Origin: a virus
Lineage: Duplodnaviria; Heunggongvirae; Uroviricota; Caudoviricetes
IMG/VR virus record: IMGVR_UViG_2671180577_000007
Reading direction: 5' to 3' (one strand)
DNA: 7,323 nucleotides
The translations under genes were made by a program, and so were the position numbers. The notes below the pieces were generated by a model. The model worked only from the letters and a program-made list of their open reading frames with translations. It was not told the origin of the DNA and searched no databases. Below, piece after piece: positions 1,369 to 7,323 of the stretch (position 1 is its first letter; each line of letters starts with the position of its first letter).

Positions 1369-4770
<3,402 letters not shown>

Positions 4771-4837: not shown

Positions 4838-5437
4838 ATGCGTAAACTTTATGCCGCCATTTTGTCCGCAGCCATTTGTCTGGCCGTATCCGGTGCGTCT
4901 GCATGGGCGTCTGAACATCAGTCCACGCTGAGCGCGGGCTATCTTCATGCCTCGACGAACGTTTCCGGCAGCGATGATCTGAACGGGATTAACGTGAAAT
5001 ACCGTTATGAGTTTACGGACACGCTGGGAATGGTGACGTCATTCAGCTATGCAGGAGACAAGAATCGCCAGCTTACCCGTTACAGCGATACCCGCTGGCA
5101 TGAAGATTCCGTGCGTAACCGCTGGTTCAGCGTAATGGCGGGGCCGTCTGTGCGCGTGAATGAATGGTTCAGCGCGTATGCGATGGCGGGTGTGGCTTAC
5201 AGCCGTGTGTCGACTTTCTCCGGGGATTATCTCCGCGTAATTGACAACAAGGGGAAAACGCACGACGTGCTGACCGGAAGTGATGACGGTCGCCACAGCA
5301 ACACGTCTCTGGCGTGGGGAGCTGGCGTGCAGTTTAACCCGACCGAATCCGTGGCCATTGATATTGCTTATGAAGGCTCCGGCAGTGGTGACTGGCGCAC
5401 TGACGGTTTCATCGTGGGTGTCGGTTATAAATTCTGA
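4838..5437 (+). CDS. lom: Lom outer-membrane protein (Ail/Lom/PagC family 8-stranded beta-barrel), 199 aa
   Basis: ATG at 4838 with GAGAGG RBS; N-terminal signal peptide ([24 protein letters not shown]). The C-terminus [25 protein letters not shown] matches the Lom/Ail family and ends in the aromatic residue typical of outer-membrane barrels. Position immediately after J matches lambda lom. Confidence 0.9.
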
Positions 5438-5463: not shown

Positions 5464-5490
5464 AGCCCGCCGGTTCAGGCGGGCTTTTTT
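5464..5490 (+). terminator. Rho-independent terminator downstream of lom
   Basis: Perfect 8-bp GC-rich stem AGCCCGCC (5464-5471) / GGCGGGCT (5478-5485) with loop GGTTCA, followed immediately by a T6 run (5485-5490). Confidence 0.8.
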
Positions 5491-5501
5491 GTGGGGTGAA
5501 T

Positions 5502-6815
5502 ATGGCAGTAAAGATTTCAGGTGTACTGAAAGACGGCACAGGAAAACCGGTACAGAACTGCACAATCCAGCTGAAAGCAAAACGTAACAGCACCACGGTG
5601 GTGGTGAACACGCTGGCCTCAGAAAATCCGGATGAAGCCGGGCGTTACAGCATGGACGTTGAGTACGGTCAGTACAGCGTTATTCTGTTGGTGGAAGGAT
5701 TCCCGCCGTCACATGCTGGGACCATCACCGTGTATGAAGATTCCCGACCCGGTACGCTGAATGATTTTCTCGGAGCCATGTCGGAGGATGACGTCCGGCC
5801 GGAGGCACTGCGCCGTTTTGAACTGATGGTGGAAGAGGTGGCGCGTCACGCTGAGGAGGCGAAGAAGAATGCCGGAGAGGCGGAGACGTCAGCGAGGAAT
5901 GCCGGCATATCAGCCAGTCAGGCAGAAGAGAGCGCTGCAAATGCTGACACTTCAGCAGGGGAGGCATCGGAGTCAGCCCGGCAGGCGGCAGAAAGTGCAG
6001 CCTCAGCAAAGCAGTCAGAGGAGGCGTCCTCGTCCTCGGCTTCTGCGGCCGCTCAAAAAGCCAGTGAGTCATCACAAAGTGCAGCAGAAGCTGAATTGTC
6101 AAGAAAGACGGCAGAAAGTGCAGCCGGTAATGCAGCCAGGGATGCAACGACCGCAACAGAAAAAGCCCGGGAGTCAGCAGAAAGCGCACAGTCAGCGGAA
6201 CAAAGCAGGATAGCGGCGGAAGAAGCCGTAAACAGAATCCCCACCGTGGTGGGACCTCCCGGGCCAAAGGGGGAACAGGGGCCCGCGGGTCCTCAGGGGC
6301 CGAAGGGTGATAAGGGAGAGCGCGGTGACACCGGCCCTGTCGGGGCAACCGGCGAACGGGGACCGGCAGGTGATGCTGGTCCGGCAGGCCCGCAGGGGCC
6401 GAAAGGTGACAGGGGAGAGCGGGGAGAGACCGGTCTGACGGGAAATGCAGGTCCACAGGGTCCAAAGGGAGATACCGGTGCGGCAGGCCCGGCAGGCCCA
6501 CAGGGACCGAAAGGAGAAACAGGTGCGGCTGGCCCGGTGGGGGCAACCGGACCTCAGGGACCGAAGGGCGACCCGGGGGAGACACAAATCCGTTTTCGTC
6601 TGGGGCCGGGAAACATTATTGAGACAAACAGCAATGGCTGGTTCCCGGATACAGATGGCGCACTCATCACCGGACTGACCTTTCTTGCCCCCAAAGATAC
6701 CACACGGGTTCAGGGTTTTTTTCAGCATTTGCAGGTCAGGTTTGGTGACGGGCCGTGGCAGGATGTTAAGGGGCTGGATGAAGTGGGCAGTGATACAGGC
6801 AGAACAGGAGAATGA
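5502..6815 (+). CDS. stf: Side-tail-fibre-like protein with lambda-Stf-type N-terminus, Ala/Ser/Glu-rich repeat region, collagen-like (Gly-X-Y)37 domain and a short distinct C-terminal domain (437 aa)
   Basis: ATG at 5502 gives [37 protein letters not shown]..., matching the lambda Stf N-terminus as recalled; the ORF track starts 2 codons earlier at GTG 5496. It lies 64 nt after lom, as in lambda. An A/S/E-rich low-complexity region spans ~5850-6240, the uninterrupted Gly-X-Y run spans 6252-6584, and a 76-aa C-terminal domain follows before TGA 6813-6815. Confidence 0.85.
6252..6584 (+). repeat. Collagen-like triple-helix repeat: 37 consecutive Gly-X-Y triplets with a recurring GPQGPKGD/E unit
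   Basis: Translation [111 protein letters not shown], with Gly at every third residue and no interruption. The unit GPQGPKG recurs at least four times, with matching near-repeats at DNA level. Confidence 0.9.
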
Positions 6816-6816
6816 C

Positions 6817-7086
6817 ATGAACATATTAAAAAAAATTATGCAGCGTCTGTGCGGTTGCGGAAAGCATGATGACCGTGAAGACGGGGAGTTACTTACAGCA
6901 CAGCTGCGACTGGGACCGGCAGACATTCTGGAGTCAGATGAGAATGGCATTATCCCGGAGCAGGACAGGGTAATCACGCAGGTGGTGATACTGGATGCGG
7001 ATAAAAAGCAGATACAGTGTGTGGTAAGACCGCTGCAAATCCTGCGTGCTGACGGGAGGTGGGAAAATATTGGCGGGATGAAGTAA
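6817..7086 (+). CDS. Small hypothetical protein (89 aa), translationally coupled to the fibre gene; function unknown (candidate fibre chaperone/assembly factor or cargo gene)
   Basis: ATG at 6817 lies 1 nt after the fibre stop, with AGGAG (6806-6810) 6 nt upstream. Product MNILKKIMQRLCGCGKHDDREDGELLTAQLRLGPADILESDENGIIPEQDRVITQVVILDADKKQIQCVVRPLQILRADGRWENIGGMK is acidic with no signal peptide. The ORF track extends it upstream to 6685, but that part overlaps the fibre gene out of frame and lacks an RBS. A terminator follows. Confidence 0.55.
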   Translation: MNILKKIMQRLCGCGKHDDREDGELLTAQLRLGPADILESDENGIIPEQDRVITQVVILDADKKQIQCVVRPLQILRADGRWENIGGMK

Positions 7087-7100
7087 CCCGACAGCTTCAC

Positions 7101-7126: not shown

Positions 7127-7171
7127 GTTGTCATGTAAGGCAGATGTTTGTTAAAGCTATTTAAGTCTGGA

Positions 7172-7198
7172 GTTTAAATGTAACCGGCTCATTTAAAC
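7172..7198. repeat. Perfect 9-bp inverted repeat (GTTTAAATG / CATTTAAAC) with 9-nt spacer in an AT-rich intergenic region
   Basis: Left arm 7172-7180 and right arm 7190-7198 are exact reverse complements; spacer TAACCGGCT. Neighbouring sequence has further TTAAA/TTTAA motifs (7151-7165). Confidence 0.5.
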
Positions 7199-7233
7199 CG
7201 TCTGGTCTGTTTCCTCCGGCTCTACAAAAATAA

Positions 7234-7255
7234 TGTCCATCATTTTTAATGGACA
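7234..7255. promoter_or_regulatory. 7-bp inverted repeat (TGTCCAT / ATGGACA) next to a -10-like AATAAT, immediately upstream of a new ORF start; candidate operator/promoter
   Basis: Arms at 7234-7240 and 7249-7255 with an 8-nt T-rich spacer; AATAAT at 7229-7234. No convincing -35 was found, so the promoter call is weak. Confidence 0.3.
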
Positions 7256-7262
7256 CTATCGT

Positions 7263-7323
7263 ATGAAACACCGGACCTGGATCACTGAAGCTTTACGTCT
7301 TCACTTTGAAGAACATTTACCCC
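7263..7323 (+). CDS. Possible 5' end of a downstream gene (partial; runs off the window)
   Basis: ATG at 7263 opens frame 3 (MKHRTWITEALRLHFEEHLP...), open to the window end. It follows the terminator and AT-rich palindromic region. Only 20 codons are visible and the RBS is weak (GGACA), so this is tentative. Confidence 0.25.
   Translation, partial: MKHRTWITEALRLHFEEHLP

Follow-up and report, generated by a model that had tools for sequence, protein, structure and literature searches.

The stretch of DNA analysed here (hereafter the window; 7,323 nucleotides of a Caudoviricetes virus, IMG/VR record IMGVR_UViG_2671180577_000007) raises the question of what kind of fibre is encoded at positions 5502–6815 of the plus strand, and how the C-terminal end of this protein relates to known fibre tips. 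The initial annotation, made from the sequence alone, had described a chimeric side tail fibre in which a lambda-Stf-like anchor was fused to a collagen-like helix and to a tip that could not be assigned. We are highly confident that the product of this gene is a side tail fibre of the EPclA type from a lambda-like siphophage prophage, corresponding to lambda Stf in position and N-terminus while carrying a different distal module. As a discovery this is of little weight, since the family is named, curated in Pfam and biophysically characterised; its general importance is that of a host-range/adsorption element of lambdoid prophages that bear genes for Shiga toxin and type III effectors.

Open reading frames and Pfam matches identify the window as the distal portion of a tail operon of the lambda type, with the gene order K-I-J-lom-fibre-small ORF. 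K (68–742), I (640–1311) and J (1372–4770; 1132 aa with the complete gpJ Pfam domain set) lie upstream of the fibre gene, lom (4838–5437) directly precedes it, and the small ORF (6817–7086, plus strand, 89 aa) is a stand-alone paralogue of the C-terminal fibre domain (PfC). The fibre gene extends from an ATG at 5502 to a TGA at 6813–6815 (437 aa plus stop); a GTG at 5496, offered as a start by the ORF listing, was rejected in favour of this ATG, because the solved lambda Stf chain begins with MAVKIS. Between lom and the fibre gene, a GC-rich terminator-like hairpin with a T-run is present on the plus strand (5464–5485; 8-bp stem with 7 GC pairs, then TTTTTGTGGG), and a Shine-Dalgarno-like GGGGTGA lies 3' of it, ahead of the fibre gene. 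Judging by this pattern, the hairpin would halt lom transcription in the lysogen, and late anti-terminated transcription would need to continue past it; terminator-like sites were about as frequent as expected from shuffled sequences (3 found vs. 2.7 expected).

All parts of the fibre have Pfam families (PF08400, PF01391, and PF06820). The tail-attachment/collar domain PfN occupies aa 1–133 (5502–5900, plus strand) and matches PF08400 over profile positions 1–133 of 134 (E 1.1e−68). It is followed by an Ala/Ser/Glu-rich coiled-coil stretch (PCoil; aa 101–245, 5802–6236, plus strand), the composition of which (43 A, 25 S, and 24 E per 145 residues) bears out the initial description, and in which about 20 xxAxxAx heptads follow one another without a break; the 3.5-residue periodicity of alanine exceeded that of all 2000 shuffles. 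The collagen segment (Col; aa 251–361, 6252–6584, plus strand; PF01391) consists of exactly 37 uninterrupted Gly-X-Y triplets, the 111 residues originally reported, and would form a triple helix of ~32 nm. With glycine at 7.7% outside the run, the chance probability of 37 in-register glycines is ~1e−41. Two minus-strand ORFs over this segment (6192–7100, 302 aa; 5725–6585, 286 aa) had no Pfam match, and they were taken as by-products since the collagen repeat is 71% GC and poor in stop codons. The C-terminal end (aa 362–437) has the 76 residues quoted initially, yet its supposed unassignability did not survive a profile search: PfC (aa 363–426, 6588–6779, plus strand) matches PF06820 (Phage_fiber_C) over the full length of the profile (1–64/64, E 1.7e−36), leaving a short tail of aa 427–437 (6780–6812, plus strand). 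No PF13884 domain (the PfC2/S74-type end) was found by Pfam in the window protein.

The domain order and dimensions are those of EPclA (EHEC prophage collagen-like protein A; e.g., ECs2717 of the Sakai prophage Sp14) as described by Ghosh et al. 2012 (PMC3368898). EPclA has the same PfN-PCoil-Col-PfC layout with the same lengths and is also located in a lambdoid prophage tail block; the PfN, the PCoil, the single Col, the PfC and the tail-block location of this type are all found in the window. For most copies of O157:H7 EDL933 and Sakai, the dimensions given are 437 aa in total, 116 aa for the PCoil and 111 aa for the Col (PMC3368898), and the PfN-to-Col spacing of the window protein equals this PCoil length. 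The gene is therefore EPclA, the named and most common architecture, in a protein class that was already known and experimentally characterised, and the combination that had seemed novel is a described one. Aligned with the recombinant protein rEPclA, whose sequence was machine-read from the supplement of PMC3368898, the window protein differs by ~15 scattered substitutions in 437 residues (~96.6% identity), with Col identical at 111 of 111 positions and three differences in PfC (G372A, N373S, and T402A in rEPclA). Construct boundaries (PfN-PCoil 1–250, PfC 363–426) and PCR primers of the same study fit the window sequence. The host of the window prophage is not O157, in contrast to that of the published EPclA, and the closest genomes are from human isolates from South Korea.

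Owing to this near-identity, much of the fibre's structure has already been shown experimentally, namely the trimer, the collagen and coiled-coil conformations, the trimerisation by PfC and the dumbbell shape, and the initial proposal of a side fibre with a collagen helix and a trimerising C-terminus had thus been demonstrated beforehand. rEPclA was trimeric by AUC and MALLS, its Col showed the collagen CD signature with a Tm of 42 °C, and its Ala-rich coiled coil was helical and trimeric with a Tm of 52 °C (PMC3368898). PfC alone was trimeric as well and permitted fast refolding of the collagen helix, a Col-PfC fragment could also be produced, and electron microscopy revealed a hinged dumbbell of ~50–62 nm (PMC3368898), with which our geometric estimate for the window protein (~21 nm of coiled coil plus ~32 nm of collagen) agrees. 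The collagen is also of note for its unusual heat stability in the absence of proline hydroxylation. Streptococcus Scl1/2 and Bacillus BclA (PDB 1WCK) likewise have unhydroxylated Gly-X-Y helices stabilised by charged residues and X-position Pro, and their helices are also nucleated by a globular trimerisation domain (N-terminal in Scl2, where it nucleates refolding), but the flanking domains and the cellular location are unrelated.

How far the resemblance to lambda extends was judged from alignments with lambda Stf. In Ur-lambda (PDB 9E7M/9MGH), Stf is also encoded after lom, and its collar domain is ~91% identical to aa 1–93 of the window protein (9E7M chain Ta), which confirms the lambda-Stf-like N-terminus described in the initial annotation. 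Identity is ~90% over aa 1–116, and with low-complexity masking switched off the alignment with lambda Stf (orf401) spans aa 1–251 at 59% identity; the coiled-coil stalk is accordingly common to both proteins and divergence begins at the collagen segment, so that the statement that the remainder is not lambda-like applies from Col onwards and not to the stalk. The distal part of lambda Stf is T4 gp37-like, binds OmpC and requires the Tfa chaperone, whereas the much shorter window fibre has collagen plus PfC. Within the window, Pfam matched neither a PF03406 repeat in the fibre protein nor a Tfa gene downstream of it, the downstream gene being the PfC paralogue, and for this reason it is only through its anchor and position that the window protein corresponds to Stf.

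The other half of the protein has its relatives among the short-tailed Stx phages, in whose fibres (EPclB / 933W L0121 / Sp5 ORF67 / phi24B gp61) the Col-PfC module is ~95% identical to aa 249–437 and which share the 89-aa PfC gene downstream of the fibre gene. The EPclB-type fibre is otherwise different, with 645 aa, two or three collagen segments split by a Pf2 repeat, and an N-terminal adaptor to the podovirus tail; in Sp5 the fibre (ORF67) is essential. The label chimeric is hence fair in the sense of ordinary phage mosaicism, with aa 1–116 like lambda and aa 249–437 like the short-tailed Stx fibres. In Shigella and E. coli homologues of the EPclD type (P0073–P0110), the PfN-PCoil-Col front is combined with a PF13884 peptidase S74 chaperone domain in place of PfC, and the tip is therefore an exchangeable module. 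The side tail fibre of phage 434 (UMO75364.1, OL657227) has 437 aa and is 95.4% identical to the window protein; the order lom-fibre-89-aa ORF is the same as here, type III effector genes lie downstream, and the two proteins differ most in PfC (89.5% identity vs. 99.1% in Col).

Taken together with the experimental work on rEPclA, these comparisons are consistent with the following assembly. One fibre would consist of three chains, the PfN domains of which would dock at the tail tube/tip junction in the manner of the 91%-identical lambda Stf domain; in Ur-lambda, the collar at the gpV/gpM junction has 12 subunits contributed by four Stf trimers (PMC12617516), and we infer the docking geometry on this tail by analogy. 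The Ala-zipper coiled coil (~21 nm), a hinge (NRIPTVV) and the 37-triplet collagen (~32 nm) would then extend a small, beta-rich PfC knob, which would self-trimerise and both nucleate and register the collagen helix from its C-terminal end. PfC is thus the C-terminal trimerisation knob and presumably the receptor-binding tip as well: it would probably be the first part to engage a cell-surface receptor, reversibly, and so allow the central J fibre to meet its own receptor faster. By analogy with lambda Stf, the fibre would be a non-essential adsorption accelerator. An antibody against the related Sp5 fibre marks the tail ends, and the same gene is present in the viable phage 434.

As regards the receptor, the full-length alignment of the tip to a characterised tip domain realises one part of the outcome that the initial annotation had named as reducing the novelty to the combination, but the other part, a known receptor for that domain, does not hold. 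BamA (YaeT) has been proposed as the receptor of the related short-tailed Stx phage fibre (EPclB). A 2026 preprint disputes this role: it argues against the collagen fibre as the BamA binder, pointing to lambda_2B8, the fibres of which carry a related Col-PfC yet fail to recognise BamA.

Structural searches with the tip gave little. A PDB sequence search with the last 80 aa returned no solved structure better than E 0.5. An AlphaFold2 model of the last 4 triplets plus PfC (28-sequence alignment) was beta-rich, with a mean pLDDT of 60 and a pTM of 0.48, and it is a monomer although PfC is an obligate trimer. Foldseek of this weak monomer model against the PDB found no match below E 1, the top entry (Cas1, probability 0.16) being meaningless.

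The PfC family is very narrow and comprises effectively two sequence types. An exhaustive HMMER search yielded 90 PfC hits, mostly fragments, among 1.84 billion representatives, and a word-indexed search for PfC relatives gave 291 clusters, in which all named members were Escherichia or Shigella. Several long hits (P0254, P0303, and P0311) were rejected, as they gave numerous partial matches to Pfam families of other kinds and resemble artefacts of repetition or composition. In two further proteins, parts of the domain appear as repeats: P0283 (565 aa) has four tandem ~70-aa modules resembling the C-terminal half of PfC together with a collagen segment, and P0291 (856 aa) has ~12 'NTFNTAGNLLKLDANGKLPAVDGSLVTNI' repeats resembling its N-terminal half. 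By these resemblances, PfC may be composed of two motifs which other phage fibres contain in repeated form.

The second PfC type is that of the 89-aa ORF (6817–7086), which begins a single nucleotide past the fibre stop codon and has an AGGAG 6 nt upstream of its ATG. The protein has a conserved 27-aa N-terminal leader with a C-x-C motif followed by PfC at aa 28–89, matches PF06820 (E 1e−36) and, over its full length, phrog_576, and its PfC is 34% identical to that of the fibre at the protein level. The gene follows the fibre gene in phages 434, 933W and AU5Stx1, and accompanies it in every locus examined. Published annotations are inconsistent (‘tail fiber assembly chaperone’, ‘tail fiber protein’, and, in AU5Stx1, ‘alternate tail fiber tip’), and the Sp5 homologue (ORF68) was found to be non-essential for plaque formation and lysogenisation and was proposed to be a sequence reservoir. 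In five copies compared as non-independent pairs, pN/pS was 0.04 for the PfC part of the 89-aa protein vs. 0.24 for the PfC of the fibre, which suggests, as a lead from a small sample, that the ORF encodes a working protein.

This companion gene bears on the receptor-binding role presumed for PfC. PfC could be only a folding nucleus (‘foldon’), with the receptor contacted by a separate putative partner, most plausibly the co-transcribed 89-aa paralogue, placed on the tip or assembled together with it, comparable to T2-type gp38 capping gp37. Such a division of labour would fit with PfC being a proven trimerisation and refolding module, with the paralogue always lying beside the fibre gene in the examined loci and appearing translationally coupled to it, and with the much stronger purifying selection on the PfC of the paralogue. 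We nevertheless consider it rather unlikely, as Sp5 forms plaques and lysogens without ORF68, the greater amino-acid variability of the fibre PfC is what a receptor-contacting surface would show, and the selection estimate comes from just the five non-independent copies. A further proposal, that the 89-aa protein is no silent spare and no general chaperone but a strongly constrained structural partner on or with the PfC knob (a cap or a chain-registration template) that sets the binding target of the fibre, is in our view unlikely; if true, it would explain why a receptor has not been pinned on PfC. We retain the presumption that the PfC of the fibre itself is the receptor-binding tip.

More doubtful still is a silent-cassette role for the 89-aa gene, in which it would act as an ‘intragenomic reservoir’ and the fibre tip would be swapped periodically by recombination; this was suggested before for Sp5 ORF68, and the AU5Stx1 annotation fits it. 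Its own Shine-Dalgarno, ATG and conserved 27-aa leader, together with the strong purifying selection, point instead to a translated protein, while the two PfC types are, at their level of protein identity, too diverged for efficient homologous exchange, and no fibre with a stand-alone-type PfC occurs among the 120 full-length homologues listed. Recombinants between the PfC types do seem to exist in the form of P0141, in which the leader and first PfC strand are of the stand-alone type (MNILKK...LRLGPADILES) and the C-terminal PfC part is of the fibre type (...GRTGE); this sequence is either evidence of recombination between the PfC types or an assembly artefact.

That the fibre serves the bacterium, acting like the streptococcal Scl proteins as an adhesin or virulence factor of collagen-like build, was left open by Ghosh et al. 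(PMC3368898) and would suit the enrichment of the gene in prophages of pathogenic E. coli and its position adjoining type III effector loci, but is highly improbable given that the protein has no signal peptide or anchor, that its N-terminus is a virion collar domain, that the gene follows J and lom within the late tail operon, that the expression evidence is linked to phage induction (PMC3368898), and that phage 434, a non-pathogen phage, has the gene too. A tail fibre of the virion is the role we assign to it.

Variation of the helix length had been anticipated from recurring GPQGPKGD/E units. Five GPQGPKG[D/E] units are indeed present in the collagen segment, but they are weak as DNA repeats: the GPQGPKG units are 74–87% identical at the DNA level over 23 nt, a single tandem pair (45 nt, 84% identity) was found, and the longest exact direct repeat within the segment measures 11 nt, for which reason highly repetitive DNA was rejected as the driver of length change. 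The predicted lability itself was confirmed by comparison of homologues, as the full-length ones sampled have 4, 8, 14–16, 19–21, 25, 26, 32, 34 or 37 triplets, and the stalk too comes in several lengths. Collagen lengths of 63–144 aa, corresponding to 21 to 48 triplets, were tabulated earlier (PMC3368898). Our guess is that the length changes when diverged units, or different prophage copies, recombine out of register.

About one complete E. coli genome in eight carries the family (693 of 5426, with a copy counted if at least 80% of the fibre-plus-small-ORF query was covered), often in multiple copies, with up to 18 matching places per genome and roughly 15,000 in total. Among phage records, 141 had at least 80% protein coverage, many Stx-converting phages included. 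Within this family, the window offers a clean substrate for studying the PfC receptor, the atomic structure of the PfC trimer and the role of the stand-alone PfC gene.

The closest complete-genome copy (NZ_CP148374.1, 11502–12814) lies in a segment 99.7% identical to the window over 7130 nt, in a genome that carries the full lambda-type tail operon upstream of the fibre gene. Its fibre gene is annotated as frameshifted, unlike the intact fibre ORF of the window. As frame-disrupted EPclA copies were also tabulated by Ghosh et al. 2012 (PMC3368898), the EPclA gene evidently decays often. In the window, the last ~160 bases (~7160–7323, plus strand), some 75 nt downstream of the 89-aa gene, correspond to the left end of an element of the IS66 family, with the ATG of an accessory tnpA near 7265 (MKHRTWITEALRLHFEEHLP...). 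Because of this element and the frameshift in the closest copy, the prophage of the window may be defective, though its fibre ORF is intact. Similarity to the closest prophage copy ends at 7130–7154, where that copy continues instead with the remnant of an EspF-repeat effector.
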